Assembly (NCBI GenBank): GCA_963707215.1
Contig: CAVPPB010000003.1
Location: forward strand, 1,120,001-1,184,000
DNA length: 64,000 nt
DNA from: an uncultured Chloroflexia bacterium
GTDB taxonomy: Bacteria > Chloroflexota > Limnocylindria > Limnocylindrales > CSP1-4
Reading direction: 5' to 3'
The notes beneath the pieces were generated by a model that did not search any database, had not been told where the DNA came from, and saw only the letters and a program-made list of their open reading frames with translations. Shown one piece after another: positions 6,471 through 22,303 of this stretch. Both the position numbers and the translations under genes were made by a program. How positions within the stretch are numbered: the first letter of the stretch is position 1; the number at the start of each line of letters is the position of its first letter.

Positions 6471-9052
6471 GTGACCGACACCGCCGAGCCGCGACTCCCG
6501 GCACCGGCGCCGCTGGGCGCGGGCGCATCGACCGCTACGAGCCGACCGCCATCGAGCCGCGCTGGCAGGCCCGCTGGGACGAGCTGAGGCTGTAGCGGAC
6601 GGACCTCCACGACGCGTCGCGGCCCCATTACTACCTGCTCACGATGTACGACTACCCGTCGGGCGACCTCCACATCGGGCACTGGTACGTCAAGACCCCG
6701 ACCGACGCCCTGGGCCGCTTCCGGCGGATGCAGGGCCACGATGTCTTCATGCCGGTGGGCTTCGACGCCTTCGGCCTGCCGGCCGAGAACGCGGCCATCA
6801 AGAGCGGTCGCCACCCGGTCGAGTGGACGATGCGCAACATCCAGAACATGCGGCGTCAACTGCGCTCGATGGGGGCCGCCTGGGACTGGGACGCCGAGGT
6901 CGTCACCTGCGACCCGTCGTACTACCGCTGGAACCAGTGGCTGTTCCTGCGCTTCCTGGAGGCCGGGCTGGCCTACCGCTCGGTCTCGGCGGTGGACTGG
7001 TGCCCCAACGACGGGACCCTGGCCCGCGAGCAGGTCGAGGGAGCCGACCGCCACTGCTGGCGCTGCGGGGCCAAGGTCGAGAAGCGCGAGCTGCCCCAGT
7101 GGTACCTGCGGACGACCGCCTACGCCGACGAGCTGCTCGACTTCACTGGCATCGACTGGCCCGAGCCGATCCGCGTCATGCAGACCAACTGGATCGGCCG
7201 TTCGGAGGGCGGCGAAGTCGTCTTCACCTCGGCCCCCGACCAGCACCAGCCGGGCGGTGACGAGATCCGGGTCTTCACGACCCGCCCGGACACGCTCTTC
7301 GGGGCGACGTTCATGGTCCTGGCGCCCGAGCACCCGCTGGTCGAGAAGCTGACCGCGCCGGGTCAGCGGGGGGTCGTCCGGGCCTACGTCGAGCAGGCCG
7401 CCAGCGAGACCGAGATCGAGCGCCTCTCCACCGAGCGCGAGAAGACCGGCGTCCCGATCGGCGCCGACGCCATCAACCCGGTCAACGGCGAGCGCATCCC
7501 GATCTGGGTCGCCGACTACGTCCTGGCCGGCTACGGCACCGGGGCGATCATGGCCGTGCCGGCCCACGACGAGCGCGACTTCGCCTTCGCCAGGGAGTTC
7601 GGGCTGGAGATCCGCGAGGTCATCCGGCCGATGGACCGGGTCGGCCACGAGGGAGAGCTGGCAGAGGCCTACGTCAGCAAGGCCGACACCGACGTCCTGG
7701 TCAACTCGGGCCGCTACAACGGCATGTCCTCGCCCGACGCGATCCGGGCCATCGTCGCCGACCTGGAGGAGCGCGGCCTGGGCAAGGCCGCCGTCACCTA
7801 CCGCCTCCGCGACTGGCTCATCAGCCGCCAGCGCTACTGGGGCACGCCGTTCCCGATCGTCTACTGCGAGACCGACGGCATCGTCCCGGTCCCCGACGAC
7901 CAGCTGCCGGTCCTCCTGCCCGAGACCGTCGACTACAAGGGGAGCGGCGTCAACCCGCTGACCCACGACGAGGCCTTCCTGGCGGCGACCTGCCCGCGCT
8001 GCGGGGGCCCGGCCCGCCGCGAGACCGACACGATGGACACCTTCATGGATTCGTCGTGGTACTGGTTCCGCTACCTCTCGCCCGCCAAGGACGACGGAGC
8101 GGTCGACCGGGCGATGACCGACGCCTGGACCCCGGTCGACCAGTACACCGGCGGCGCCGAGCACGCGGTCATGCACCTGCTCTACAGCCGCTTCTTCACC
8201 AAGGCCATGGCCGACTGCGGCCTCGTCGGCCACCGCGAGCCGTTCCGCCGGCTGTTCAACCAGGGCCAGATCCTGGGCGCCGACGGCGAGCGGATGAGCA
8301 AGAGCCGGGGCAACGTCCAGGACCCCGACGACCTGGTGGGGCGGTACGGCGCCGACACGGTCCGGCTCTTCCTGATGTTCATGGGTCCCTGGGACCAGGG
8401 CGGTCCCTGGAGCCAGACCGGGGTCGGTGGCGTGCACCGCTTCCTGAACCGGGTCTGGACGCTGACCCTGGACCCGCACGGGGTCGAGCCGTCCGATCCT
8501 GAGGCCGGCCGGCTGCCGGCCGGCGAGGATGCCGGGGCCGCCGAGCGGACGCTCCGGGCAGCCGCCCACCGGACCCTCCGCGACGTCACCGCCGACTACG
8601 AGGGCTTCCGGTTCAACGTCATGGTCGCCAAGCTCATGGAGCTGTCCAACGTCCTCTACCGCTACCGCGGCACCGAGGTCGCCGGCGGGGCGGCCTGGGA
8701 CGAGGCGGTCCGGCTGCTCCTGCTGATGCTGGCCCCGGCGGCCCCGCACGTCGCCGAGGAGCTCTGGTCGCGCCGCCAGGCGGCAGCCGGCGTCGAATGG
8801 TCGTCGATCCATCTCGAGACCTGGCCGGCCGTCGACGAGGGGGCCGCGGCCGAGGAGACCCGCGAGGTCCCCGTCCAGGTGAACGGCAAGCTCCGCGACA
8901 AGGTCGTCGTGCCGGCCGACATCTCGCAGGCGGAGCTCGAGGCGATCGTCCTGGCCCGGCCGAAGGTCGAGGCCGCGCTGGCCGGTCGCACCCCGGACCG
9001 GGTCATCCACGCCGGCGGCGGCAAGCTCGTCAACATCGTCGTCCGGGGATGA
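6471..9052 (+). CDS. leuS: Leucine--tRNA ligase (5' end has a frameshift near 6490 and an in-frame TAG at 6593)
   Basis: [31 protein letters not shown] editing domain, [16 protein letters not shown]; upstream frame gives [15 protein letters not shown]. Confidence 0.95.
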
Positions 9053-9603
9053 GCGACGGGACCGACCGGGTCGGCGAGGCGATCGCCGCCTGGGCCGAGA
9101 TGACCGCTCCCCCCGACCCGTCGACGGGGGCCCGGAGCCGCCCGATGCGCCCGGTGCGCGACGGCGCGGTCGTCGAGCTCCGCGAGATCACCGAGCCGAT
9201 CGTTCGCGACGTCCTGCGGCTCCAGGTGGCGCCGTCCCAGCGCGGCCACGTCGCCCCGAACGCCGTCTCGCTCGCCGAGGCGCTCTTCGAGCCGAAGGCC
9301 TGGTACCGGGTCATCGTGGCCGACGATCGGCCGGTCGGGTTCGCCATGCTGTCCGTCGACACCGCCAAGCCCGAGTACTACCTCTGGCGCCTGATGGTGG
9401 CCGAGCCGTACCAGGGCCTGGGCTACGGCCGACGGGCCGTCGAGCTGCTGGTCGAGCACGTCCGGGGCCTGCCGAACGCGACCGAGCTGGTGGTGAGCTG
9501 GGTGCCCGGCGAGGCCGGACCCGAGCGCTTCTATCGCGACCTCGGCTTCGAGCCGACGGGCGAGGTCGACGAGGGCGAGGTCGTCGCGAGGCTCACGCTG
9601 TGA
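9049..9603 (+). CDS. GNAT N-acetyltransferase (diamine acetyltransferase-like)
   Basis: [16 protein letters not shown] acetyl-CoA motif, FYRDLGF; ATGA overlap with leuS. Confidence 0.85.
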
Positions 9604-10022
9604 GAGGCGGCGTCGATCGAGCGCGAGGTGCTTCGGCGACGCTGGCGCTCGCCGCGCTCGTCGGCGCCGTCGCCCTCGCCTCGGCTGGCTGCGCCGGCTT
9701 CACCAGCGACCCGGCCCTGACCCTCGGCCTGGCCAACGAGACCGACCGGCCGGTGCTCGTCTACGTCAACGACGAGTGGGTCGGCACCTTCCCGGTCGAC
9801 GCGGACCGCGACGACATCACGACGAGCGCGCACGGCGGGCCGCCCTGGCGGGTCGAGGTCCGGACCGACGCGGGCACGGTCCTGGCAGCCTTCGAGGCGG
9901 ACACCGCGACCGTGCCGACCGGGATCGAGGCCGAGACGACCTGCGGGGACCTCGCCGCCTGGGCCGGCGACGCGCGTCCGCCCGAGCTGGAGATCGCTCC
10001 GGGCACCGTCCCCTGCGAGTAG
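9600..10022 (+). CDS. Hypothetical lipoprotein
   Basis: Hydrophobic signal ending SAGC; GTGA overlap with GNAT. Confidence 0.6.
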   Translation: MRGGVDRARGASATLALAALVGAVALASAGCAGFTSDPALTLGLANETDRPVLVYVNDEWVGTFPVDADRDDITTSAHGGPPWRVEVRTDAGTVLAAFEADTATVPTGIEAETTCGDLAAWAGDARPPELEIAPGTVPCE

Positions 10023-10068
10023 GCTCCGGCGATCTCGAGGCTCGGCCGACGGTCGGAGCCGAGCTCGG

Positions 10069-10154
10069 TGCTGGGGGTGTCCCGGTCGACGGCTGACCGC
10101 CGAGCCGCCTCGTGAGTCGGTACGGCGACGGCTGGTTCGTCGGTGATGTCGACG
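10069..10154 (+). repeat. Degenerate copy (74/87 identities) of 14065-14151, the 5' region of the class III aminotransferase gene
   Basis: Manual alignment: 12 substitutions (10 transitions, including TGG>TGA) and a 1-bp gap. Confidence 0.9.
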
Positions 10155-10182
10155 AGGCCTCCCCGTTCGCCGATCCCCGCGG

Positions 10183-10782
10183 TCAGGCGCCCGCACGCTT
10201 CGGATCGGCCCCCGCTCCGGTGTCCTCCGCGGCCTCCCACTCGTCCCGGGTGAGCTCGTACTCGACGTCGCCGTACTCCTCGCCCTCGATGCGGTCCGGC
10301 CATGGCTGGTGGAACACGCGGACGCGACGCAGCCCGGCCTTCTCCATGACCCGCCACGAGGCGACGTTCACGACCATGGTCGTGGCGTACACGCGCCGGA
10401 CATCAAGGTCGGAGAAGGCCTTCCGGACGAGTGCCCGGCTCCCCTCGGTCGCGTAGCCCTGGCCCCAGGCCGAGGCGACCAGCCGGTAGCCCATCTCCGG
10501 CTCGTCGTCCGCGTCACCGCGTTGCGGGCGCAAGTGGAACCAGCCGAGGAAGGCACCGGTCCCCTTCTCGACCGCCGCCCAGAAACCGTACCGGTCGCCC
10601 TCCGCGTAGTAGGCCAGCCAGAACGGCAGGTGGTCGTCGCGGATCTCGTCCCGCGGCGTCGGCCGGCCGCCGGTGATGTAGCGCATGACCGCGGGGTCGG
10701 CGTCGAGCGCCACGATGTCGTCGAGGTCGTCGGGCGTGAGCCGGCGGAGGACTAGGCGGTCGGTCTCGAGGTAGACGTGCAC
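10183..10782 (-). CDS. GNAT N-acetyltransferase, RimJ/RimL family
   Basis: LETDRLVLRR, EMGYRL..SAWGQGYATEG, N.ASWRVMEKAGL; TACCAT 6 nt before GTG. Confidence 0.9.
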   Translation of the reverse strand: MHVYLETDRLVLRRLTPDDLDDIVALDADPAVMRYITGGRPTPRDEIRDDHLPFWLAYYAEGDRYGFWAAVEKGTGAFLGWFHLRPQRGDADDEPEMGYRLVASAWGQGYATEGSRALVRKAFSDLDVRRVYATTMVVNVASWRVMEKAGLRRVRVFHQPWPDRIEGEEYGDVEYELTRDEWEAAEDTGAGADPKRAGA

Positions 10783-10847
10783 CGCGCGATGGTAGCGGCC
10801 CGCCCGTGGCCCTCCGTGCGCAGCTGGCGCCGAGCGGACCGTTGAGC

Positions 10848-11516
10848 TCAGGCGCTCCGCGCGCCCGCCGACGCGAACGCCATGGCCCGCTGAAGGGCCG
10901 CCTCGCGCATGGCCTCCGGGATCGGCACGGCCCCGCCGACGAGCGACGCGTGGAGCGCCGCCTGCGCGGCCTCCTCCACGACGCCACCGACGAGCACGGC
11001 CAGCTCCGGCGATCGATGGAAGACGAGGACGCCGTGGTTGGCGAGCAGCACCGCCGGCACGCCGGGCCGGGCCGCCGCATCGATGTTCGCGACGGCCTCG
11101 GCCGAGCCGCGGGGCCCGTAGCCGGCCACCGGGATCCCGTCGGCCAGCCCGAACATCGCCAGCGCCTCGATCCAGCACTCGATCGGCCGCTGGGCGACGG
11201 CGAAGGCGGTCGCGAACGGCGAGTGGGTATGGAGGACGCACTGGACCTCCTCGCTCGCCCGGTACCGCGACGTGTGCATGTCGACGACGGCAGCCTGGAT
11301 CGGGGGCAGCTGGCCCTCGATCAGGGTCCCGTCGAGGCGGACGCGGGCGACCCCCTCCGCGGTCAGGCCCTGGAGCGACGCGGCCGAGGTGAAGTACATC
11401 TCGTCGGCGCCGGCGACCCGCAGGCTGACGTTGCCGTGGCCGTTCGACCCGATCGCGCCGCTGGCGAGCACCCGCTGGGTGGTGTCGATGAGCCCGTCGA
11501 TGTAGTGGGGATCCAC
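10848..11516 (-). CDS. Class II aldolase/adducin family protein
   Basis: GNVS, MH...Y, VLHTHSPFAT, VLLANHGV zinc motifs; GGAGGAG RBS. Confidence 0.9.
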   Translation of the reverse strand: MDPHYIDGLIDTTQRVLASGAIGSNGHGNVSLRVAGADEMYFTSAASLQGLTAEGVARVRLDGTLIEGQLPPIQAAVVDMHTSRYRASEEVQCVLHTHSPFATAFAVAQRPIECWIEALAMFGLADGIPVAGYGPRGSAEAVANIDAAARPGVPAVLLANHGVLVFHRSPELAVLVGGVVEEAAQAALHASLVGGAVPIPEAMREAALQRAMAFASAGARSA

Positions 11517-11610
11517 GGGGCGCTCCTCCGGTGCGGTGGTCGGGCGACCGGCCCATCGTGGCACGTCCTGGCCACCCCCTGCGCCGCAGCGCTGCCGGCC
11601 CAGGGACCGC

Positions 11611-11643
11611 TTGACAGGGTCTCTGTACAACCGTATGGTTGTA
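11611..11643 (+). promoter_or_regulatory. Sigma-70 promoter TTGACA-N17-TATGGT overlapped by operator palindrome TACAACC-N4-GGTTGTA
   Basis: Exact motifs at 11611-11616, 11634-11639 and 11626-11643. Confidence 0.85.
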
Positions 11644-11645
11644 TG

Positions 11646-11978
11646 ATGCAAGTCGCTCTCGACCACGACCGCATCTTCGGGGCCCTGTCCGACGCCACGC
11701 GCCGCGACATCGTGCGCCGGGCGATCGACGGGCGCGAAGGCGTCGCCGAGCTGGCCACCCACTACTCCATGAGCTTCGCGGCGGTGCAGAAGCACGTCGC
11801 CATCCTCGAGCGAGCGGGGCTGGTCACGAAGCGGCGGATCGGGCGGCGCAAGGTCGTCCACACCAACCTCGAAGGGCTCCGCACGGCGCGACGACTGCTC
11901 GATCGCTACGAGGACATGTGGCGCGAGCGCGTCGAACGGATGACCCAGCTCATCAGCGAACAGGAGGCGTCCCGATGA
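11646..11978 (+). CDS. ArsR/SmtB family transcriptional regulator
   Basis: IFGALSDATRRDIV, SFAAVQKHVAILERAGLV. Confidence 0.9.
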   Translation: MQVALDHDRIFGALSDATRRDIVRRAIDGREGVAELATHYSMSFAAVQKHVAILERAGLVTKRRIGRRKVVHTNLEGLRTARRLLDRYEDMWRERVERMTQLISEQEASR

Positions 11979-12478
11979 CCGTCACTGCCGTCCGCAAGGA
12001 CCCCCAGAACCGCACCATGGTGCTCGAGGCCGAGTTCGAGGCCTCCCCCGACCGGGTGTGGCAGCTCTGGGCCGACCCGCGCCAGCTCGAGCGTTGGTGG
12101 GGTCCGCCGACCTACCCCGCCACCGTGACCGCTCACGATCTTCGGGCGGGTGGCCGCGTCGAGTACCACATGACCGGCCCCGAGGGAGATCAGCCCAAGG
12201 GCTACTGGGAGGTGGACGAGGTCGAGCCGCCGCGTCGTCTCGTCTTCCGCGATGGCTTCGCGAACGACGACGGGACGCCGAACCCGGCGTTCCCCGAGTC
12301 GACCGGTCGCGTCAGCATCGAGGCGATCGGCGGCGGCAGGACCCGCATGACGATCGAGAGCGAGTTCCCGACCGTCGAGGCCATGGAGCAGGTCCTGGCC
12401 ATGGGCATGGAGGAAGGGCTCACCCAGGCCGTCGGCCAGATCGACGCGATCCTGGCCGAGGCCGGCGTCCGGTCCTGA
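11975..12478 (+). CDS. SRPBCC/AHSA1 domain protein
   Basis: ASPDRVWQLWADPRQLERWWGP; typical ArsR-SRPBCC pair; ATGA overlap. Confidence 0.9.
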   Translation: MTVTAVRKDPQNRTMVLEAEFEASPDRVWQLWADPRQLERWWGPPTYPATVTAHDLRAGGRVEYHMTGPEGDQPKGYWEVDEVEPPRRLVFRDGFANDDGTPNPAFPESTGRVSIEAIGGGRTRMTIESEFPTVEAMEQVLAMGMEEGLTQAVGQIDAILAEAGVRS

Positions 12479-12523
12479 GCCGACCCCGAGGCCCTCTTGA
12501 GCCCACCCCGCAAGGAGGACACC

Positions 12524-13405
12524 GTGACCATGGCATCGATCCAGCCGCGGACCGGGACCCTGGCGGTCCCAGGCGCGACGCTGACCTACGACATCCGACC
12601 CGGCGAGCAGAGCACGGAGCCGGCCCTTCTCCTCATCGGCTCGCCGATGGGCGCCGCCGGCTTCGCCAGCCTGGCCGGCCGCTTCGCCGACCGGACGATC
12701 GTCACCTACGACCCGCGCGGAGTCGAGCGCAGCACCAAGGACGACCCGTCGAGCCCGTCGACCCCGGACGAGCACCTCGACGATCTCCATCGGATCATCG
12801 AGGTCATCGGCGGCGGCCCGGTCGACCTGTTCGCCAGCAGCGGCGGGGCGGTGAACGCCCTGGCCCTCGTCGCCCGGCACCCGGAGGACGTGCGGACGCT
12901 GGTCGCCCACGAGCCGCCGGTGGTGAGCGACCTGCCCGATGCCGAGGCCGCGTCGAAGGCCTCCCGCTCCGTCGAGGACGCCTATCGGCGCGACGGGTTC
13001 GGGGCCGGCATGGCCCGGTTCATCCAGCTCGTCAGCCACCAGGGCCCGTTCCCGGACGACTGGGCCGACGCCCCCGCCCCGGATCCGGCGATGTTCGGCC
13101 TCCCGGCCGAGGACGACGGCTCCCGCGACGACCCGCTGCTGGGCCAGAACATGGGCACGAGCCCGCATCATCGGCTCGACTACGAGGTCCTGCGGGCGGC
13201 CCCGACGCGCATCGTCATCGCCGCCGGCGTCGAGTCGGGCGAGACGCTGGCCGCCCGGGCGGCCGTCGCGGTCGCGGAGCGCCTGGGCGTCGAGCCGGTC
13301 ATGTTCCCGAGTCACCACGGCGGCTTCCTGGGCGGCGAGTACGGCCAGGTGGGCGATCCCGACGCCTTCGCGGCCCGGCTGCGCGAGGTCCTGGGCGAGG
13401 GCTGA
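12524..13405 (+). CDS. Alpha/beta hydrolase
   Basis: TYDPRG, FASSGGA nucleophile elbow, AHEPP, HGGF; AAGGAGG RBS. Confidence 0.88.
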   Translation: MTMASIQPRTGTLAVPGATLTYDIRPGEQSTEPALLLIGSPMGAAGFASLAGRFADRTIVTYDPRGVERSTKDDPSSPSTPDEHLDDLHRIIEVIGGGPVDLFASSGGAVNALALVARHPEDVRTLVAHEPPVVSDLPDAEAASKASRSVEDAYRRDGFGAGMARFIQLVSHQGPFPDDWADAPAPDPAMFGLPAEDDGSRDDPLLGQNMGTSPHHRLDYEVLRAAPTRIVIAAGVESGETLAARAAVAVAERLGVEPVMFPSHHGGFLGGEYGQVGDPDAFAARLREVLGEG

Positions 13406-13431
13406 CGCGGCCCTCGCCAGCGTCGCAGCGG

Positions 13432-13725
13432 TCAGGGCAGCTGTCTGATGACCGTGGCCCTGAACGGTGCGGCGAGCAGCTCGGCCAGCGGCGCGTAGAC
13501 ACCGGTGGCCGCGGCCGCCTGCATGTGCTCCGTCCGCGCCTCGGCGGACTCCCAGTCGGCGATCTCGATCAGCACGTCGGGGTCATCCGGGACCTCGTAG
13601 CGGGTGCTGCCGAGGTAGCCGCGCTGGCCGGGTCCGTGCTCCGCCGTGAGGGCCTCGACCAGGCCCTCGAGCTCGGGCCGTCGGCCGGGCTTGGCCCGCA
13701 GCTCCACGATCACCTTGATGGCCAC
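13432..13725 (-). CDS. Antibiotic biosynthesis monooxygenase (ABM) family protein
   Basis: IKVIVELRAKPGRR...GYLGS...EIADWESAEA..H. Confidence 0.82.
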   Translation of the reverse strand: MAIKVIVELRAKPGRRPELEGLVEALTAEHGPGQRGYLGSTRYEVPDDPDVLIEIADWESAEARTEHMQAAAATGVYAPLAELLAAPFRATVIRQLP

Positions 13726-13979
13726 CGCGTGCGCGCCTTCCTGCTGTCGCCGAGCGAGGCCCCTCCGACCCCTCCCGGCCGCGGCTGCTGGCGCGCAGCA
13801 TCGCCGAACGGGTGGGCGGCCAGTGTGCCGAACCGGGCGACTGCCCCAGCCACGTTGACGGCGGTCCACCCGGCGTGCGACCGTCCGAAGGGACCGCTGC
13901 ACCGACCGGCGCAGTCGGCGGGCACGGCGCGGCACCACGGCGTTGGGGCGCGGCGTCGGCCCCCCACAGGAGGCAAGCG

Positions 13980-15365
<1,386 letters not shown>

Positions 15366-15405
15366 TCCTCTCCGTCCGGCCGACGCGATCGGCGCCCGAT
15401 CGCGG

Positions 15406-16644
15406 CTAGTTGAGCTGGCGGACGTCCTTGCGAGTGACGATCATCTCGCGGCGCCCCATCTCGGCGATGAAGGCATCGCGGACGGCCCGATCCAGCAGCT
15501 CCGGGGCGATGACGCCAGGCTCGGCGATCCGCCCGTCGAGGAGGAACTCGGCGTAGATCGAAGCGGGCGTCGAGGTCCCGTACGACACCGACGTGGCGCC
15601 CGGGATCAGCTCGTTGGCGCGCTTGATGTCCGGACCCACGACCGAGTGGTGGATCGTGTGCGGCTTGCCGTCCTTCTCGCCGATGCAGTCGACGAGCTGG
15701 ATGCCGATGTCGAGGATCTCACCCGTAGCAGCCACCTTCGCCAGCTCGTCCGCCGGCGGATTCGGTGGCAGCGTGGCGACGTAGACGTCGATCGGCCGGA
15801 CCCGGGTCCCGTCCCTCAGGGCGACGGGCTCCTTGCTGGCCATGCCGGAGCCCACGAACGCGGCGTCGGCGCGGAGGGAGGCCTCGTCGGTGCCCATCTT
15901 GAAGTCGACGTAGCGGAGCCCCTTGTCGCCGAACCTCTTCGGCAGCAGGCGCGGCAGGGTCGTGACCTCCTCGTGGTCGTGGGCGATGCAGAGCCCGCGA
16001 CCGAACGGCTCGGGGAACTCGTACCACTCCTCCAGGCCGAAGATCTCGACCCGCTTGAACTGCCCGTCCTCGTACAGCAGAGGCGGCTGGGCACAGTCCG
16101 TGTAGTAGGTCTCCTGCGACCAGACCTGGAGCGGCACCGGCGACTCGAAGAGGGCGAAGTCCTTGATCCGGATCTCGGTGCACCGGTCGAGGTCCTCGTA
16201 GGCGTTGGCAGCGAACGTGTTCGTCACGCCCGGGTCCATGCCGGTGCTTTGGAGGGCACACAGCCCGGCGGCCCGGAACTCGGGATCGAGGGCGGACTGC
16301 TCGAGCCAGGCCTCGTCGATCGTCTGGGTCGGCGTCTGGCCCGAGGCCATGTCGAGGTAGTTCGCGCCGGCCTTCAGGCAGGCCCGCATGATCGACATGT
16401 TGAACTGCGGGACCACGGCGTTGACGACCAGGTTGGTGCCGGCGGCGGCCGCGGCGACGGCGTCGGTGTCCGAGGCGTCGATCCTGATCGCCGTCGCCTT
16501 CCCGGCCCCGACCTGTCCGGCCACGAACCGGGCCCGTGCCGCGTCGTAGTCGGCCACCACGATCTCGGTCACGACCGGGCTCCGACCCAGGTTCCAGGTC
16601 AGGACCTGGCCCTGCATGCCTGCGCCGACCACGAGCACCTTCAT
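15406..16644 (-). CDS. Saccharopine dehydrogenase-family protein (carboxyspermidine/lysine dehydrogenase-like)
   Basis: MKVLVVGAGMQG Rossmann fold, NYLDMA, GMDPGVTN, HEEV. Confidence 0.88.
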   Translation of the reverse strand: MKVLVVGAGMQGQVLTWNLGRSPVVTEIVVADYDAARARFVAGQVGAGKATAIRIDASDTDAVAAAAAGTNLVVNAVVPQFNMSIMRACLKAGANYLDMASGQTPTQTIDEAWLEQSALDPEFRAAGLCALQSTGMDPGVTNTFAANAYEDLDRCTEIRIKDFALFESPVPLQVWSQETYYTDCAQPPLLYEDGQFKRVEIFGLEEWYEFPEPFGRGLCIAHDHEEVTTLPRLLPKRFGDKGLRYVDFKMGTDEASLRADAAFVGSGMASKEPVALRDGTRVRPIDVYVATLPPNPPADELAKVAATGEILDIGIQLVDCIGEKDGKPHTIHHSVVGPDIKRANELIPGATSVSYGTSTPASIYAEFLLDGRIAEPGVIAPELLDRAVRDAFIAEMGRREMIVTRKDVRQLN

Positions 16645-16889
16645 GGATCCGCTCCCCTCACGACGTTCGAGCCTCGCCGACCGGCGGTCGCCGGCTGTCC
16701 CCGGGACACAGGGTGGACCGATGACGGCCCCGCGGAGACCCGCCGATCGTAGGCTCCCGCAGGTCGTCCTGCGACCCACCGGTCCGGCCCGCGGGCCGAC
16801 CGTCCCGACCTGGCCCGCCGCCGGGCGAGCGCTGACAGGCCGGGACGCGCGAGTCCATAGTTGGGGTCCACAGTCACCCGGGAGGGATC

Positions 16890-17027
16890 ATGGCGGACAT
16901 CAAGCTCGGCGCACTCTGCTGGAACCAGTACTCCGACTGGGCGGGCCTCCGCGAGGCGGGCATCCGGGCCGACCGACTCGGCTTCGACACGCTCTGGACC
17001 TGGGATCAGCGGGAAGCTGGGTCGTGA
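16890..17027 (+). pseudogene. Truncated 5' duplicate of the LLM oxidoreductase gene (45-aa [14 protein letters not shown]...TWDQREAGS)
   Basis: GGAGG RBS, ATG 16890; codons 4-39 match 17764-17870. Confidence 0.85.
16899..17005 (+). repeat. 107-bp exact direct repeat, copy 1
   Basis: Base-for-base identical to 17764-17870. Confidence 0.97.
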
Positions 17028-17722
17028 CGGAGGCGGAACCGGGTGACCTCAGCGTGCGACGGGCTATCGACGTCCGCTTCCGCGTGACACGACCGGTGCG
17101 TGCGGCGACCCGACGGCTCTGGCTGGAACAGGACCGCCATCCCGGGGACCGGTCTCGGCTCTATCGGGCCATCAGCGAGGAGGTCGCCGCACGGAACATC
17201 CTCTATCCCGGGTCCTACGTCGACGTCGCGGCCTCGTTTGTCTTCCCCAGGGTCACCTACGTGGACGTCGACCGCCGGGCGGCGCAGTTCTTCGGTGACG
17301 TCGAGGGCGTGGCAGAACTGATCGCAGAATGGCCGGACTCACCAGTCGATGCTGAGGTCCGGTTCGTCAACCAGGACTACGCCGAGGGCCTCGGCCTGCC
17401 AGAGGCGTCGTTCGACCTGCTTGTCTCCCTGTACGCCGGGTTTGTCTCGGAGCACTGCACGAAGTACCTTCGGATCGGCGGCACGCTTCTCGTCAACCCG
17501 AGCCACGGGGACGCCGCCTTGGCCTCGATCGATCCCCGCTATCAGCTATCGGGTGTCGTCGTGTCCCACTCGGGCAGGTACTCCGTGCGAACATCAAACC
17601 TCGACCGGTATCTCGTGCCGAAGCGCGACATACAGGTCACGAGCGAGCTCATCCACAGGACTGGCCGCGGGGTCCCCTACACGCGTTCGCCGTTCGCATA
17701 CTTGTTCACGCGGGTCGGCTAG
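17024..17722 (+). CDS. Putative class I SAM-dependent methyltransferase-like protein (start may be GTG 17084 or 17096)
   Basis: ILYPGSYVDV, VTYVDVD, SFDLLVSLYAG, YLRIGGTLLVN; somewhat more A/T-rich codon usage than neighbours. Confidence 0.75.
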   Translation: MTEAEPGDLSVRRAIDVRFRVTRPVRAATRRLWLEQDRHPGDRSRLYRAISEEVAARNILYPGSYVDVAASFVFPRVTYVDVDRRAAQFFGDVEGVAELIAEWPDSPVDAEVRFVNQDYAEGLGLPEASFDLLVSLYAGFVSEHCTKYLRIGGTLLVNPSHGDAALASIDPRYQLSGVVVSHSGRYSVRTSNLDRYLVPKRDIQVTSELIHRTGRGVPYTRSPFAYLFTRVG

Positions 17723-17754
17723 GCTCCGGCGCGTCACACGACAACGGAGAAACG

Positions 17755-18693
17755 ATGAGCGAAATCAAGCTCGGCGCACTCTGCTGGAACCAGTACTCCG
17801 ACTGGGCGGGCCTCCGCGAGGCGGGCATCCGGGCCGACCGACTCGGCTTCGACACGCTCTGGACCTGGGACCACCTCTACCCCATCGTCGGCGACTCGAA
17901 CGGACCGATGTTCGAGGGCTGGCTGACCCTGGCCGCCTGGGCGGAAGCTACGGCGAACGCCCGGCTCGGTCTCATGGTCGGGGCGAACACCTTCAGGAAC
18001 CCGGCCATGGTGGCCAAGATGGCCACGACGCTCGACCACATCTCGGGCGGGAGGGCCATCGTCGGGATCGGCGGCGCCTGGTTCGAGGAGGAGCACGAGG
18101 CGTTCGGCATCGACTTCGGCTCCGGCTTCCCGGAACGACTGCGCTGGCTCAGCGAGGCCCTGCCGATCATGCGCGGGATGCTCGACGGTACCGAGCCGAC
18201 GGCCAGCGGGCCGCGCTATGCCGCGAAGAGCGTCCGCAACCTGCCGGCCCCGGTCCAGGCGCACCTGCCCATCGTCGTCGGCGGTGGCGGCGAGCAGGTC
18301 ACCCTCAAGCTCGTGGCGAAGTACGCGGACATGAACAACGTCGGAGGCACGATCGACGACGTCCGCCGCAAGGAGGAGGTCCTCCTGCGCCACTGCGAGA
18401 CGGTCGGCCGGGACCCCGCCACGATCGAACGATCCACCGGGCTCGGGGTCGTCATGATCCGCGACGACCGCGAGGAAGCCGAGCGGATCAACCGCGAGGC
18501 CTTCGAGCACAACGGTGGTGCCGAGGTGTGGCGACACCAGAAGATCGGGACGCCCGAGGACGTGGCCGAGCTCATCGCGCCGTTCGTCGAGCTCGGGTAC
18601 CGCCATCTCATCATGGGCGTGCCAGCGCCGTATGACGAGGAGTCCATGAGTCGCCTCGTCACCGAGGTGAAGCCGCTCCTCGAGCGGATCTAG
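17755..18693 (+). CDS. LLM-class (luciferase-like, probably F420-dependent) oxidoreductase
   Basis: [47 protein letters not shown]. Confidence 0.93.
17764..17870 (+). repeat. 107-bp exact direct repeat, copy 2
   Basis: Identical to 16899-17005. Confidence 0.97.
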
Positions 18694-19100
18694 GGCAGGC
18701 GCTCCCAGTCGACCCAGCGCTCGCCGTCCCACCAGCGGTGCCAGACGGCGCCGTCGCGACCCGGCGCGAGGACGTCGAGGCGGTCGGCCGACCACGAGGA
18801 CGCGGCGGGCTGGCCCGCCAGCTCGCCGCCGAGCGATTCCCACGGGTGCCAGGAATCGCCATCCCAGTAGCGGTTCCAGAGCTGCCCATCGTCGAAGACG
18901 CCGAACACCTCGAGCTGGTCGGCAGCCCAGGCAGTCACGGCCGGCGCGAAGGCCAGCGCGCCGCCGAGGTCGCCGACCGCGGTCCACGCGGTGCCGTTCC
19001 AGGAACGGTGTCGGAGACCCCGGTCGGCACCGAGCCAGAACAGGTCGATGCGATCGGGTCCCCAGGAGACGGCCGTCAGGCCGTCGGGCGCGTCGGGCAT
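18690..19100 (-). CDS. Small Trp-rich repeat protein (PLL/fucose-lectin-like propeller blades)
   Basis: Three repeats of SW..DR(I/L)D(L/V)F...DG.(L/V)W(H/N)R.W.G..W..W..LGG. Confidence 0.75.
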
Positions 19101-19165
19101 CGGTCGAACCTCCCGGGACCCATGGTCTCCCATCGCGGGTCGCCGGTCCACCGGAGGCCGCCGGC

Positions 19166-19408
19166 TCAGCTCAGCGTCGACTCGGCCGAAGGCCCGTCCA
19201 CGGCCTGTTCGTAGACCGCCCGGGCGACCGAGGCCGCGCCGGCGCTGATCGCCAGCGCACCACGGGCCACGGTCCGGCGGACCCGTCCCGGGCGGGCGAC
19301 GACGACCGGGGCGTTGTGTCGCTCACGGCGCTCGGCGTTGCGGCGGGCCTCGTCGCGATGGCGCTCGCGGACGAGGTCGATGGCGTAGTAGGCGTGGATC
19401 GGCAGCAT
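19166..19408 (-). CDS. Hypothetical 80-aa Arg-rich protein
   Basis: GAGGA RBS; [23 protein letters not shown]...; downstream of a strong minus-strand promoter. Confidence 0.65.
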
Positions 19409-19466
19409 GGCGGTTCCTCTGCTTTCGCTGCTGAGGCAGCTTGCGCTGCGTTGATGGGTCGAGGTA

Positions 19467-19595
19467 TCAGCGCCGATCGTCGTCGGCGATCGTCGGGCTT
19501 GGGTCGGCGCCCCAGTGGATCGACGCGGCCGCGAGGGCGGCGAGGCCGAGCACAGCGGACGGGACGAGCCCCAGGGACGCGCTCGGGGCTTCCAC
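19467..19595 (-). CDS. Small single-TM protein (42 aa, MEAPSASLGLVPSAVLGLAALAAASIHWGADPSPTIADDDRR)
   Basis: GGAGGT RBS 5 nt before GTG; hydrophobic core followed by WGAD; not in ORF track (<60 aa). Confidence 0.6.
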   Translation of the reverse strand: MEAPSASLGLVPSAVLGLAALAAASIHWGADPSPTIADDDRR

Positions 19596-19611
19596 GTCGG
19601 ACCTCCGAGGC

Positions 19612-19692
19612 TAACTGCTTCATACGATTTCAGCGGTTACTAGGGGATGATACGAGGCTTGCACTAACCTGTCAAGTTGTCTATGGTGGTTA
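19612..19692. promoter_or_regulatory. Overlapping divergent promoters with two 28-bp TAAC-N20-GTTA operators
   Basis: + strand TTGCAC(19659)-N17-TATGGT; - strand TTGACA(19675)-N17-TATCAT; operators 19612-19639 and 19665-19692. Confidence 0.75.
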
Positions 19693-19696
19693 TGCC

Positions 19697-20326
19697 ATGA
19701 CCTCCGATGGCCACCGACACGCCGCCACCCTCGACGACACACTCGACTTCGTGAACACGCTCGAGCACACGGCGGACGCCCCGATCGAGCACCTGGGGAC
19801 CCTCGATACCGCCCTGGACTGGCTCGTCTCGCGGGAGCTCCTTCACCCCGATGCCGCCGCCGCCGAGGCACGGTCCGCGGGCCTGGGTCGAGGCGCCGCC
19901 GGGCGCCTGGCTGGCATGCATCGGGTTCGCGATGCCCTGCGCGAGGTCGCCGACGCGGTCGCGGTCGAGCGTCCCGCCGACGCCGAGGCCGTCGAGATCG
20001 TCAACCGGACGCTCCGTGCCCGCGAGGTCGTCGAGCTGGCGCCGTCGGCTGATGGCATCAGCGTCCGCGATCGCGACGCCGTCGATGCCGTGGGCGATGC
20101 CCTCGCCCGGCTCGTCGAACCGCTGGCCGAGACCGTCGTCTCGGGCCGGGCCGACCGCCTGCGGGTCTGCGAGAACGAGACCTGCCGCTGGGTCTTCTTC
20201 GATCGCTCCCGGGCCGGGCGACGGCGCTGGTGCGACATGCGGACCTGCGGCAACCGGGTCAAGGCGAGGCGCCACCGCGAGCGGATCCGCGAGGCACGCG
20301 GCGGCTCGGACGCCGCCCAGGCCTGA
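19697..20326 (+). CDS. ABATE/CGNR zinc-finger domain regulator
   Basis: LDFVNT, RLRVCENETCRWVFFDRSRAGRRRWCDMRTCGNR. Confidence 0.93.
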   Translation: MTSDGHRHAATLDDTLDFVNTLEHTADAPIEHLGTLDTALDWLVSRELLHPDAAAAEARSAGLGRGAAGRLAGMHRVRDALREVADAVAVERPADAEAVEIVNRTLRAREVVELAPSADGISVRDRDAVDAVGDALARLVEPLAETVVSGRADRLRVCENETCRWVFFDRSRAGRRRWCDMRTCGNRVKARRHRERIREARGGSDAAQA

Positions 20327-20409
20327 GCACCGGATGGACCGCCGGTCCCAGGAGCGCGACCACTCGTAGCTGGGTCACCGTTCGCGGAATGCCGGTCGAT
20401 CGGGGTACG

Positions 20410-20682
20410 TCAGCGGCGCACGTAGACGGCGATCGGCTGGCCATGACGGGCGGGCTTCCTGGCAGGCTCCCCCTCGTCCTCGACGATCGGCCTGACCCGC
20501 TCGACGTACAGATCGGCGATGGCGTCCGGCGTCTCCCAGAGGTTGACGGAGGTCACTTCCCCGTCACCGGAGGCCCAGGCGATCGAGGCGAGCAATCCGG
20601 TGGGCGGATCGGAGACGAGGCGGATGCGCTCGTTCCAGCGCTCCCACTCGTCACGAGGTGCGGTGATCGTCTCGACGAACAT
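20410..20682 (-). CDS. Hypothetical protein, ABM-like alpha/beta barrel
   Basis: PPTGLLASIAW...VNLWET; TAGTCT 7 nt before ATG. Confidence 0.65.
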   Translation of the reverse strand: MFVETITAPRDEWERWNERIRLVSDPPTGLLASIAWASGDGEVTSVNLWETPDAIADLYVERVRPIVEDEGEPARKPARHGQPIAVYVRR

Positions 20683-20804
20683 GGGGCAGAGACTAGCGCA
20701 GCCGGCAAGGACAGGGGTCGGGACACGCCGCGATGTCGGACGTCGCGCGTCCCGGACGCGGGGCGTCGAGCCACGTGGCAGCGCCTCCGTCCGGTGGCGG
20801 GCCG

Positions 20805-21254
20805 CTACCCCCCGGGAGTCTGGCTGAAGATGCCGGCGACCACGCTCGCGAGCGTGGTCACGAGCACCGCCCCGATCGGAGCCACGATCGCCCAGACCGG
20901 CAGCGACGTCGGATCGGTCCCGGTCTCCCAGACCGGGGCGACGACGCTCAGGGCGGTGGCGATGCCCCAGGTCGCCGCGACCGCGACGACGAGGCCGATC
21001 CAGAGGGGGCGCCGGCTCGCTGCGCCGCGGAGCTTCGACATCCCCCACAGGTAGCCGATCGAGCCGATCAGGCCCCAGATCCAGGTGAGGAACAGGGCGA
21101 GCGGTAGCCGCTCCTGCTGACTCCCGGATACGAGATCCGGCGACGCCAGGCTGATCACGATGACCGCGACCCAGATGATCGCGAGGCCGGCCAGGGTCCA
21201 GGTCATCCACGAGCGGTCGGCTGTCTCGACGGCTCGAGGCACGTGCTCGGTCAT
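20805..21254 (-). CDS. Hypothetical 4-TM membrane protein
   Basis: Four hydrophobic segments; GGAGG RBS. Confidence 0.7.
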   Translation of the reverse strand: MTEHVPRAVETADRSWMTWTLAGLAIIWVAVIVISLASPDLVSGSQQERLPLALFLTWIWGLIGSIGYLWGMSKLRGAASRRPLWIGLVVAVAATWGIATALSVVAPVWETGTDPTSLPVWAIVAPIGAVLVTTLASVVAGIFSQTPGG

Positions 21255-21568
21255 CTCACCCTCCGAAGCGTGACCCCAAGTATCGACCGCGTGTCGACCG
21301 TGACGACCCAGTCCCAGCCCCGGTGGGTCCGGCACGACCGGAGGCCCCGGCGTGGAGGGGTCGGGCTTCGGATCGCTGGGCGCGGCTGTCCCCGACCGGA
21401 GACGCACCGACCCACCGGGTAAGTCCCGACGAAGACCGGTCACGTAGCGTCCGATCCGGACGTCCCGTCCGCGCCAGAGGTGCCCCTCGCGCGGCGGGTC
21501 GTCCCCAGCCCGGTCCCGTCACCTGCGCTGGCCTGTTCCCGCCGGTCGATCCCGCCGGGGAGATAGCG

Positions 21569-22303
21569 ATGGAACCAGGATCGGCGCCCTGGCGGGTGCT
21601 CGGCACGGCGTCGGAGCCGACCATCGGGCTTGAGCACGAGGGTGACCAGCCGGCGCCCGACGACCGTGGGTCCGGCCCGCGCACGGCGTGGATCGTCGCC
21701 GGCCTCGCCGTCGCCGGAGCGCTCGGCATCGTCGGCTTCGGCCTGTGGGGCTCGGCGCCAGTGGATCCGCTCGGTGGCGCCGACGGGACGGTCGTGGTGG
21801 TGGCGTCCGCCGGCGCAGACGAGGCGGCCGCGGGCGGGACCGCCGCGGGGACGGTCGTGGTGGTGGATGTCGCCGGCGCGGTCCGACGACCGGGCCTCGT
21901 GGAGCTGCCGACGGGAAGCCGCCTGGCCGACGCGATCGCGGCCGCCGGCGGGTACAGCCCCGCCGTCGATCCGACGGCGGTGGTCGGGCTCAACCTCGCC
22001 GCCACGCTCACCGACGGCCAGCAGATCATCGTGCCGACTCGGAGCGCCGCCGGCGGGGCAGGTGCCACGAGCTCCGACCCGGCCGGGCAAGGAGGCGGAG
22101 GCGGCGGGGCAGGTCCCGTCGATCTGAACCGGGCCACGGCCGATCAGCTGGACGCCCTGCCGGGGATCGGGCCGGTCACCACGGAGAAGATCCTCGCCGC
22201 CCGGGCCGAGCGACCGTTCACCACGCTCGAGGAGCTCGTCGCGCGGAAGGTCATCGGGCGGGCGACCATGGAGAAGCTCGACGGCCTCGTCGTGGTCCGC
22301 TGA
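21569..22303 (+). CDS. comEA: Competence DNA-binding protein ComEA
   Basis: TM, VVVDVAGAVRRPG SLBB domain, DLNRAT..QLDALPGIGP HhH. Confidence 0.93.
   Translation: MEPGSAPWRVLGTASEPTIGLEHEGDQPAPDDRGSGPRTAWIVAGLAVAGALGIVGFGLWGSAPVDPLGGADGTVVVVASAGADEAAAGGTAAGTVVVVDVAGAVRRPGLVELPTGSRLADAIAAAGGYSPAVDPTAVVGLNLAATLTDGQQIIVPTRSAAGGAGATSSDPAGQGGGGGGAGPVDLNRATADQLDALPGIGPVTTEKILAARAERPFTTLEELVARKVIGRATMEKLDGLVVVR

Follow-up and report, generated by a model that had tools for sequence, protein, structure and literature searches.

The two long direct repeats between leuS and comEA in a Limnocylindria (Chloroflexota) genome are probably scars of gene-end displacement, in other words insertions with long target duplication. 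A rare illegitimate join would have come first, the host's own homologous recombination then producing and spreading the insertions. At both repeats a 5' gene stub is followed by cargo and then by the intact gene, as an earlier note on this DNA had described. That note saw in them a candidate for an undescribed system, a view that does not hold, as the layout matches published insertions with long target duplication, single-crossover duplications and the displacement models for rhs and T6SS loci. The events are of a kind already published, recurring here at one gene in many related Chloroflexota.

The genome (G000) is a MAG of 5 contigs, with a 3.26-Mb assembly that is 85% complete. The window is the whole stretch of DNA that was analysed, 64,000 nt of contig CAVPPB010000003.1, and the repeats and their cargo sit in the spacer running from leuS to comEA. 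This interval is a variable spacer between two conserved genes, leuS on the left (6644..9052, plus strand; Pfam tRNA-synt_1_2, tRNA-synt_1 and Anticodon_1) and the gene of an LLM-family (luciferase-like) oxidoreductase on the right (17755..18693, plus strand; Pfam Bac_luciferase, 1.2e-42), called LLM below. An LLM orthologue is located between leuS and comEA/comEC in the genome's own family and in a small-genome sister family. Of 87 loci, 62 have leuS ahead of LLM in the same orientation, and the gap between them is 29 to 8706 nt over 62 related loci, the largest being that of the window. The adjacency of comEA and comEC had been taken as a pointer to natural transformation; however, because this gene order is kept in 87 of the relatives' loci irrespective of stubs, it is uninformative on transformation.

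The 12.5 kb from leuS to comEA had been seen as one accessory block. Cargo is indeed present, but only ~10023-17754 differs from the nearest relatives. Outside this variable part, a GNAT acetyltransferase gene (~9067-9603, plus strand; Pfam) and a hypothetical gene (9600-10022, plus strand) are common to the window and genome G001, where a DNA match on contig C27 extends as far as window position 9990; by tblastn the hypothetical gene is also present in the close relatives G018 and G012. To the right, LLM and a DUF346 gene (18690-19151, minus strand; Pfam) are common to the window, G001 and G018. Small unknown genes then follow toward comEA (21323-22303, plus strand; Pfam), and tblastn finds 18690..22303 to be mostly common to relatives.

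The first repeat, D1, has an exact run of 107 nt (16899-17005 = 17764-17870) with a period of 865, within an alignment of 16896-17008 and 17761-17873 that is identical at 111 of 113 positions by repeat search, MAFFT and blastn. The duplications proposed earlier are both real: 30 first-order Markov surrogates of 9049-21568 gave exact direct repeats of at most 13-17 nt, against 107 exact nt at D1, while D2 is identical at 74 of 87 positions. The downstream copy of D1 corresponds to nt 10-116 of LLM. The upstream copy, D1a, is a dead LLM 5' stub with an ORF of 45 codons (16890..17027, plus strand) and LLM homology over 16890-17008; a blastn search of the whole 3.26-Mb assembly gave the gene directly downstream as its best non-self match.

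Between stub and intact gene lies a single cargo gene, X (17054..17722, plus strand), encoding a class I SAM-methyltransferase-like protein of a ~208-aa family. It has no Pfam match and a lower GC3 (~0.82). A search gave 1725 homologues at E<=0.001, the closest being 80-84% identical, and the name is taken from NCBI records of Actinomycetota MAGs. Gene X was not found in any of 87 other LLM loci. It is followed by a putatively imported leader (17723..17763, plus strand), comprising a Shine-Dalgarno sequence and new first three codons (ATG AGC GAA) for LLM. In the MAFFT alignment this leader and these codons are unlike those of the stub, and the next 107 nt are identical. As the D1 copies are identical in the window, the crossover cannot be placed within D1, and the 107/107 identity implies either that the donor was very close or that gene conversion followed. 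Upstream of the stub is a predicted sigma-70-like promoter (CTGACA-18-CATAGT; 16832..16861, plus strand), the only such match in 16700-17800, with a mean of 0.0 in shuffles.

D2 (10069-10154 and 14065-14151, one gap, period 3996-3997) copies nt 86-172 of a class-III aminotransferase gene (13980..15365, plus strand; Pfam Aminotran_3, 2.3e-79). Its stub (10069..10154, plus strand) is dead, with TGA at a Trp codon, and lies in a 160-nt gap between convergent genes; here too the best non-self match in the whole assembly (blastn, 3.26 Mb) is the gene directly downstream. The D2 cargo block (10155..13979, mixed strands), delimited by Pfam and frame-specific GC3, contains genes for a GNAT/RimJ-like protein (10183-~10800, minus), a class II aldolase (10848-~11560, minus), an ArsR-type HTH protein (~11640-11978, plus), an AHSA1/SRPBCC protein (~12010-12478, plus), an alpha/beta hydrolase (12497-13405, plus) and an ABM monooxygenase (13432-~13740, minus), all assigned by Pfam. 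Relatives have the ArsR-AHSA1-hydrolase block, the aldolase and the GNAT genes elsewhere on the chromosome. The aminotransferase gene and the convergent saccharopine dehydrogenase-like gene (15406..16779, minus strand; Pfam Sacchrp_dh_NADP and Sacchrp_dh_C) are themselves cargo at this site, neither having been found in the other 86 LLM loci; the former has 89% DNA identity to a gene on contig C124 of G001, where its neighbour is an orthologue of the region at 205-206 kb on contig C2 of G000. No empty site for D2 was found among the relatives' loci examined, nor a parallel in other genomes. That D1 and D2 record the same process at two ages is plausible, but D2 is the less clear case, since its mismatches (4/4/3 at codon positions 1/2/3) show no codon bias.

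The genome-wide search for similar scars that had been suggested returned one more and no others, a ~130-nt duplicated end of another gene on contig C2, where the stub is a 3' one. With just one further scar in the genome, the process is therefore rare and hotspot-bound rather than general. The similar length of this third scar points to a length scale rather than a sequence-specific site.

It is at LLM that the arrangement recurs. Of 80 sampled relatives' loci, 14 have an LLM 5' stub ahead of cargo, and a profile search finds one in 17 of 88 loci, although these are related genomes and hence not independent samples. Nine cargo types are found over the 17 stub-bearing loci, with periods of 468-4485 nt. 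The stubs end at profile positions 113-131 of the 936-nt LLM gene in 16 of the 17, the full spread being 79-131, and in 14 of 16 loci the sequence past the stub end has no significant likeness to LLM. The duplicated pieces are always 5' and ~115 nt; other parts of LLM were never found in the 80- and 88-locus surveys. Nor are there two full-length tandem LLM or aminotransferase genes among 88 loci, apart from a distant paralogue in locus L065. All six small cargo types that have a supported gene are co-oriented with LLM. This, together with the sole promoter-like site upstream of the stub, supports the displacement reading.

Comparison of alleles in the relatives suggests where the two copies came from. 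In eight loci the stub differs from its own intact copy by 42, 28 and 111 mismatches at codon positions 1, 2 and 3 (111 of 181 at the third), and therefore the two copies appear to have diverged as working genes in different lineages before being united. In all five loci tested the stub is nearer to the nearest relative's allele than to a donor-like allele. For locus L075, the identities to the nearest-relative and donor-like alleles are 87% and 71% for the stub, 28% and 92% for the intact leader, 72% and 92% for nt 13-112, and 91% and 80% for nt 150-930; both alleles were chosen by best match, so that the stub alone is an independent comparison. The switch from donor to resident allele in relatives falls between nt 112 and 150. 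On these comparisons the stub in relatives appears to be the resident allele, and the leader and first ~112 nt of the intact gene appear to be imported. This bears out the earlier suggestion that incoming DNA ended in a homologous gene start.

The finished units also seem to have moved. A cupin cassette with one common left junction follows no fewer than three types of resident leader, and a membrane-protein cassette follows two. Units are stacked in loci L047 and L061, where the right end of the cupin cassette precedes the stub, and L047 retains the final 28 nt of an earlier stub with its junction. Leaders and an 'M patch' occur in free combination, with allele switches between nt 15 and 88.

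Assembled contigs from four metagenome runs (X1-X4) contain both states of the site. An exact contig from X1 (17649-17834) runs across gene X, leader and LLM and bridges the D1 right junction, and the same run has exact contigs of gene X. In X2 a 95% contig bridges this junction, with an allele switch at ~nt 89 of LLM. This switch and the recombined leaders and 'M patch' indicate that breakpoints probably fall inside the repeat. The empty sites that had been called for were seen in X3 and X4. A contig from X3 joins 16840-16898 to 17764-18101, skipping 865 nt with a joint that is ambiguous over exactly 107 nt, and one from X4 covers 16866-17005 and continues as LLM nt 117-137; in both, the DNA upstream of the stub is joined straight to LLM. 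D1 is polymorphic in nature, an occupied form and a precise empty form both existing. None of the X1-X4 contigs examined bridges the left junction (17005|17006).

Under the displacement reading, incoming DNA would have brought cargo followed by a replacement leader and ~40 opening codons of the downstream gene, and this short gene-start homology would have let it recombine with the resident gene. What stays behind as the stub would be the resident promoter with the first ~116 nt of the gene, and transcription from that old promoter would pass through the cargo into an intact gene that begins with imported sequence. Each cassette would go back to a first illegitimate join of HFIR (homology-facilitated illegitimate recombination) or NHEJ type. 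Once formed, the unit of stub, cargo, leader and gene start would need no more than the host's homologous recombination, presumably RecA-dependent, to invade a naive gene, either as a circular copy through one crossover or by a staggered double crossover. Recombination of one repeat with the other could excise it precisely. A dedicated recombinase would not be required. Against this, recombination at random positions does not predict stub ends at 113-131 in 16 of 17 loci with nine cargo types; such clustering needs common descent with cargo turnover, selection (long repeats being unstable) or a preferred breakpoint.

The reported absence of recombinases from the interval was confirmed, as a Pfam scan of its 22 ORFs found no integrase, transposase or resolvase domain. 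All tyrosine recombinase (PF00589) matches in the assembly are outside the window, and the 85%-complete assembly has no Resolvase (PF00239) match. An integron does not fit, there being no tyrosine recombinase in the window and the repeats being coding sequence of the target gene. Nor does an IS or transposon insertion, for want of a transposase domain and flanking inverted repeats, with duplications of 87-113 nt, or a site-specific integrative element, for want of a recombinase in the window, a fixed stub end and conserved inverted ends.

Site-specific integration, in which small integrative elements with a recombinase of their own or in trans used an att site at ~nt 113-131 of LLM and carried a substitute gene start, the single-gene cassettes being decayed or mobilised remnants, would account for the clustered stub ends. 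Phage 21 and e14 bring a substitute icd gene end on integration. In L047 the 4-kb cargo includes a large serine recombinase (Resolvase, 2.4e-28, and Recombinase domains) next to the intact gene start. Ahead of its imported leader L047 has a ~35-nt motif in common with L078, a locus whose 114-nt repeats enclose restriction-type cargo (EcoRI-like methylase, GmrSD/HNH). GTCGT lies 17-21 nt after TGGAC at left junctions of six different cargo types, and could be a recombinase half-site or a relic of LLM sequence. Yet the recombinase is present in just 1 of 17 stub-bearing loci, searches of the other 87 loci and of G000 gave no homologue, and of 12 loci tested for terminal inverted repeats only one had p<=0.03, the other 11 being negative. 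Serine integrases are not known to leave a ~115-nt duplication. The ends do not fall at one nucleotide, alleles switch within the repeat (~nt 89, and between nt 15 and 88), and two other genes in G000 have the same layout with similar stub lengths. This reading is unlikely. One-step HFIR, in substance the proposal of the earlier note, with each cargo type having its own anchor and illegitimate join from linear DNA without later spread, fits the one-sided homology and the presence of Ku and DprA genes in G000, and has been proposed for similar arrays (PMC5361080). It is an unlikely account: the same left junction behind different resident leaders fits spread of a finished unit, nine independent joins within ~20 nt are improbable, the usual HFIR outcome is deletion of recipient DNA, and 56 of 60 duplication clones in an E. 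coli assay were single crossovers of circles (PMC3240628).

The lack of codon bias in the D2 mismatches leaves room for an in-situ origin of that repeat, and with the stop codon in its stub resembles neutral decay of a local copy. As a general account, however, tandem duplication of a gene or gene start followed by deletion and decay, with cargo arriving later and no foreign allele, is very unlikely. Identical D1 copies would suit it, but the D1 leader and first three codons differ sharply beside them, mismatches in relatives are mainly at third positions, stubs are resident-like where intact starts are foreign, and only ~115-nt 5' pieces are duplicated. That strain variants were mis-joined in the metagenome bin is hardly credible, despite the 5-contig MAG and the unbridged left junction of D1, given the X1 and X2 contigs across the right junction, the exact contigs of gene X and the same layout in 16 other assemblies from other projects.

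Gene-end displacement, the preferred reading, has several known relatives. HFIR resembles it in a one-sided anchor without a recombinase and is a candidate for the first event. Work by de Vries and Wackernagel (2002) and Prudhomme et al. (2002) reportedly established that one homologous anchor admits foreign DNA in this way. Unlike the present case, HFIR typically replaces or deletes recipient DNA without duplicating the anchor, and would not lead one to expect the same junctions behind different leaders. In the minimal mobile elements of Neisseria, which are integrase-free hotspots, a variable cassette between conserved genes is exchanged via flanking homology. The site between two conserved genes is alike, but a duplicated gene end is not needed there, whereas here one flank copies the start of the other.

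C-terminal displacement and orphan modules at rhs/cdi-type loci are said to have been described by Jackson et al. in 2009. At rhs/T6SS effector loci, as Kirchberger et al. (2017) present them, successive insertions at the edge of the conserved gene part push the old gene end aside, and the relic arrays spread by homologous recombination (PMC5361080). Those described are 3' ends, with toxin tips and immunity genes, whereas here it is the 5' end of a metabolic enzyme gene that is pushed aside, with mixed cargo and capture of the promoter. The by-products of the E. coli HFIR assay, single-crossover duplications of 109-950 bp (PMC3240628), are alike in their Campbell-type order of native promoter with truncated 5' copy, insert, and full gene headed by the fragment's start; that assay used a laboratory plasmid, whereas for the present case a circular intermediate in nature is an inference. 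Furuta, Abe and Kobayashi (2010) described insertions with long (46-423 bp), variable target duplication, without a mobility gene and with an empty site in a related genome (PMC2853133). D1 is like these in its direct repeat of >30 bp, the single copy in the X3 and X4 empty forms and the lack of a mobility gene, as is L078 in its restriction-type cargo between 114-nt repeats. The cases in that report are pairwise and come from a screen for restriction-modification cargo, whereas most cargo here is of other kinds, the LLM stubs are always the 5' end of the same gene, a foreign allele appears to be imported together with a leader of its own, and reuse of the site extends across a bacterial class.

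The two direct repeats that an earlier note had described between leuS and comEA were confirmed, in a window with a G+C content of 72.8% taken from an assembly of 3.26 Mb in 5 contigs. For D1, repeat search, alignment and blastn give 111 of 113 identical nucleotides between 16896-17008 and 17761-17873, with an exact core of 107 nt (16899-17005 and 17764-17870) at a period of 865. For D2, 74 of 87 nucleotides are identical between 10069-10154 and 14065-14151, at a period of about 3997. The longest exact repeats in 30 first-order Markov surrogates of the interval are 13-17 nt. When the entire assembly is searched, the best non-self match of either upstream copy is the gene immediately downstream, which is a luciferase-like oxidoreductase of the Bac_luciferase family (LLM) for D1 and a class-III aminotransferase for D2. 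The upstream copies are here called stubs, that is, dead leftover gene starts, and the genes between a stub and its intact gene are called cargo.

The gene map is based on frame-specific GC3 and Pfam. On the forward strand, leuS (6644-9052) is followed by a GNAT gene (~9067-9603), a hypothetical gene, hyp (9600-10022), and the aminotransferase stub (10069-10154). The cargo of D2 comprises a GNAT/RimJ-like gene (10183-~10800, reverse), a class II aldolase (10848-~11560, reverse), an ArsR-type regulator (~11640-11978, forward), an AHSA1/SRPBCC gene (~12010-12478, forward), an alpha/beta hydrolase (12497-13405, forward) and an ABM monooxygenase (13432-~13740, reverse). The intact aminotransferase (13980-15365, forward) and a saccharopine-dehydrogenase-like gene (15406-16779, reverse) come next, and then, all forward, the LLM stub ORF (16890-17027), gene X (17054-17722) and the intact LLM gene (17755-18693). 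DUF346 (18690-19151, reverse) and small unknown genes mapped without strand (19151-21322) precede comEA (21323-22303) and comEC (22307 onward), both forward. The region 22307-26620 is a single open frame of 1437 codons with Competence and Lactamase_B (ComEC) domains and a DNA_pol3_delta_C (HolA) domain near its end; it could be a fusion, reflect a frameshift that was missed, or simply be GC-rich DNA with a long run free of stops.

The D1 stub begins with its own ATG (ATG GCG GAC), and the only sigma-70-like promoter match within 16700-17800 lies ahead of it, at 16832-16861. The intact LLM gene begins ATG AGC GAA, behind a different leader that has a Shine-Dalgarno sequence. From codon 4 onward the copies are identical for 107 nt, after which the stub enters unrelated sequence and ends at a stop. 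A very close donor or gene conversion could either of them account for the 107/107 identity. Gene X, between the D1 copies, is on the same strand as LLM and has a lower GC3. Its family, of about 208 residues, is widespread (1725 homologues at E<=0.001) and named class I SAM-dependent methyltransferase by NCBI; the best homologues are 80-84% identical and most of those listed about 58-68%. Gene X is absent from the LLM loci of the relatives, where it was searched for. The 11 substitutions in D2 are spread 4/4/3 over the codon positions, the pattern expected of neutral decay, and D2 has no parallel in the other genomes compared. A 12-mer, TAGGCTCCGGCG, is present exactly twice in the 64 kb. The copy at 10020-10031 starts at the stop codon of hyp, the gene ahead of the aminotransferase stub, and the copy at 17720-17731 at that of X, the gene ahead of the intact LLM gene. 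With one mismatch there are 3 matches against 0.78 expected, and 3 were reached in 4 of 100 shuffles.

LLM is also located between leuS and comEA/comEC in the relatives, including a sister family with 1.0-1.4-Mb genomes. In the 62 of 87 loci for which both genes could be located, leuS ends between 29 and 8706 nt ahead of the start of LLM. The maximum is that of the window, and the hotspot that had been proposed is therefore real and class-wide. Since GNAT and hyp on the left side and LLM-DUF346 on the right are common to the nearest relatives, the variable block is approximately 10023-17754. The aminotransferase/saccharopine-dehydrogenase pair was found in none of the 86 other LLM loci; in a genome of the same genus it adjoins the orthologue of a gene at 205-206 kb of contig C2 of the source assembly. 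When 13855-16779 is compared with contigs C124 and C111 of that genome, the pair is 89-92% identical but at another chromosomal place. The ArsR-AHSA1-hydrolase block, the aldolase and the GNAT gene are located elsewhere in relatives. The spacer has thus gathered genes out of the family's own pool.

The LLM stub is a recurrent feature. A tblastn search with the LLM protein of the source assembly identified an additional N-terminal LLM fragment, upstream and on the same strand, in 14 of 80 relatives' loci (70 of the 80 with more than 1 kb of upstream flank). The fragments are 16-67 residues, mostly residues 1 to ~40. After the set had been widened by the window, G021 (locus L017) and G057 (locus L104), a profile of the first 150 nt of LLM identified stubs in 17 of 88 loci. 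Stub ends fall at profile positions 113-131 in 16 of the 17, though the profile extends to 150, and the stub-to-intact periods are 468-4485 nt. Short-open-frame candidates from the family search were mostly frameshifted or contig-end copies, with one further stub (that of G057). In two genomes, two LLM starts are on separate contigs, one of them at a contig end (G115, end of C162 and C19; G226, end of C234 and C285). These assemblies may be broken at the LLM repeat, in which case counts from short-read MAGs may be too low an estimate of how common stubs are.

Nine unrelated cargo types are present across the stub-bearing loci: gene X in the window, YecM, a cupin (7 loci), a membrane protein (2 loci), a short ORF (2 loci of one lineage), GNAT, a WapI-like immunity gene, a 4-kb block with a large serine recombinase (L047:3001-7000) and a 4.5-kb defence-type block with an EcoRI-like methylase, a GmrSD/HNH nuclease and DUF3800 (L078:2516-7000). 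All six of the small cargo types with a supported gene have the same orientation as LLM. The L078 cargo is flanked by 114-nt repeats that are 96.5% identical, and the L047 recombinase, of 448 residues, is directly beside the intact LLM start. A motif of ~35 nt (ACGCTAAC...ACACNTGTCC) is common to the imported leaders of L078 and L047 (L047:6900-7000). A search for a hidden continuation of the stub past nt ~120 gave no significant result in 14 of 16 loci; the exceptions, L044 and L048, have p ~0.01. Multi-stub arrays (nhmmer, E<=1) were not found, except for a weak match in L078 (E=0.17) and a 28-nt relic in L047.

The stubs of nine cargo types may end within ~20 nt of each other for one of several possible reasons: common descent with turnover of the cargo, counterselection of long repeats as unstable, or a length rule of mechanical origin. 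The sequence GTCGT, 17-21 nt past TGGAC, is common to six cargo types, and a TGG-to-TGA change at one and the same Trp codon is present in 7 stubs with 4 cargo types. These shared features hint at common descent of the stub end.

Comparison of stubs with their own intact copies (8 loci) gives 42/28/111 mismatches at codon positions 1/2/3. This third-position excess shows that, before they came together, the two copies were working genes evolving in different lineages. In all five loci tested, the stub is nearer to the allele of the closest relative than to the allele like the intact start (87 vs 71, 81 vs 77, 86 vs 77, 61 vs 59 and 86 vs 76% identity); the nearest relative was picked by nt 150-930 and both alleles are best matches, so that only the stub comparison is independent, and related genomes are non-independent samples. 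The intact LLM genes of stub-bearing loci are chimeras. For example, the leader of the L075 intact gene is 28% identical to that of its relative L060 and 92% to that of L032, which has the same cargo; the values are 72% and 92% for nt 13-112, and 91% and 80% for nt 150-930. A low-GC 'M patch' at LLM nt ~88-108 (TTGGATACACAAGTCT, Tyr-Thr-Ser replacing Tyr-Asp-Thr/Ser) accompanies the imported gene starts and reduces the similarity of the two repeats. The patch is found at 7 of the 17 stub-bearing loci, in the intact copy, at 3 of 71 stub-less loci and in none of the 17 stubs; its carriers overall are L029, L032, L035, L044, L047, L048, L050, L054, L072 and L075.

Cassettes have also spread and stacked. 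The cupin cassette, with one common left junction, is behind stubs of at least three leader types, and the membrane-protein cassette is behind stubs of two. In L047 and L061 the 3' end of the cupin gene and its leader are ahead of the stub, so a later insertion pushed aside the start brought with the cupin cassette. The sequence upstream of the L047 stub retains a cupin cassette with part of it deleted, and of an older stub it keeps the final 28 nt along with their junction. The cupin gene is the ordinary upstream neighbour of LLM in many stub-less loci, as would be expected if a donor arrangement had met a recipient one.

Natural polymorphism was seen in four metagenome runs, X1 to X4, as contigs only, with 17010-17151, including the left junction of D1, without cover. 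Run X1, which may be the source sample, has exact contigs within X and a further one over 17649-17834 (X, leader and LLM). X2 has X at 95% identity and then LLM switching to the M-patch allele at ~nt 89. In X3, 16840-16898 is joined straight to 17764-18101, a skip of 865 that is ambiguous over 107 nt, and in X4, 16866-17005 is followed by CCACCTCTACCCCATCGTCGG, the LLM sequence following the repeat. The empty site asked for in the earlier note is present in the X3 and X4 contigs. The DNA upstream of the stub is thus the native LLM upstream region, and related populations either have the 865-nt unit or lack it precisely.

Insertion at one gene start might be the work of a dedicated recombinase. 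The interval contains no recombinase or transposase domain by Pfam, in agreement with the first reading of it as free of integrase and transposase. Tyrosine-recombinase matches in the source assembly are at 168 kb, 220 kb and 400 kb of contig C3, all outside the window, and there is no Resolvase match in this assembly, which is 85% complete. A recombinase is present in 1 of the 17 stub-bearing loci. The serine recombinase of L047 was considered as a shared tool and rejected, with 0 homologues in the other 87 loci or the source assembly, as were terminal inverted repeats as a general cargo feature, with only L047 reaching p=0.03 among 12 loci (local alignment, 300 shuffles). Breakpoints fall within the repeat, as seen in the X2 allele switch and the distribution of the M patch. 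The same layout, with similar lengths, is found at two other genes of the source assembly. One is D2, where the stub ends at ~nt 172 of the aminotransferase gene. The other is a mirrored scar with a 3' stub, at C2:463994-464123 and 465931-466060 (L110 1995-2124 and 3932-4061), where a stretch of 130 nt, made up of the last ~120 nt of a 302-codon ORF and the 10 nt beyond it, recurs 1.9 kb further along (86%), with a 595-codon thiamine-enzyme-like gene between the copies. A genome-wide search for such scars, as the earlier note had proposed, was run in the source assembly and returned 192 local repeat pairs. Screening was applied to 25 of these and frame analysis to 15; those that fit are D1, D2 and the C2 3' stub, so that the search added one further scar and none besides. 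The single recombinase locus, the lack of inverted repeats, the breakpoints inside the repeat and the other genes with the same layout count against a dedicated recombinase.

A layout of the D1 type would be the product of a single crossover between the chromosome and a circle bearing the 5' fragment of the gene. Where a stub already exists, two ordinary crossovers, one in the stub on the left and one deeper in the gene on the right, could bring a fragment of stub, cargo, leader and gene into a naive gene. The first join of every cassette would have to be illegitimate, and homology-facilitated illegitimate recombination (HFIR) is the usual proposal for it (PMC5361080). In an E. coli HFIR assay, single-crossover duplications of 109-950 bp were sequenced, with 56 of 60 clones of this kind (PMC3240628). 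Genes for Ku and DprA were found in the source assembly; they are not diagnostic, the DprA search matching 11 of 14 control genomes too. It is conceivable, if rather unlikely, that stub and intact start form a RecA-run, recombinase-free, integron-like gene-sampling platform. Promoterless cassettes, ending in a substitute leader and ~115 nt of LLM, would then loop out as circles, re-enter naive LLM genes class-wide by single crossover, be expressed from the captured LLM promoter and be stabilised by the divergent low-GC patch in the imported copy. The preference for a breakpoint at nt 113-131 would follow from how short-homology recombination works mechanically.

The LLM loci provide many natural replicates of gene addition at a fixed chromosomal place without visible mobile-element machinery. 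The start of a conserved gene would act as both landing pad and promoter donor, and the scar would ease the next transfer. With its 17 occupied loci and 9 cargo types, and with stacking and both occupied and empty metagenome forms, the dataset could serve to measure how often short-homology recombination occurs in uncultured Chloroflexota and which length rules it obeys. In annotation, such stubs should be treated as recombination scars, rather than as small genes or new elements.

The suggestion of an undescribed system is not borne out. The layout here matches the category 'insertion with long target duplication' (PMC2853133), which was described in many bacteria for restriction-modification genes; its repeats are 46-423 bp, and mobility genes are lacking. 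The LLM case is the mirror image of the C-terminal displacement at rhs and T6SS loci (PMC5361080). The LLM locus is therefore another case of an established category, gene-end displacement, also termed insertion with long target duplication. The new element is how widely, within one class, displacement recurs at a single gene start, with direct evidence that the stubs are resident and the starts imported, and likewise of stacking and of the two allelic states.
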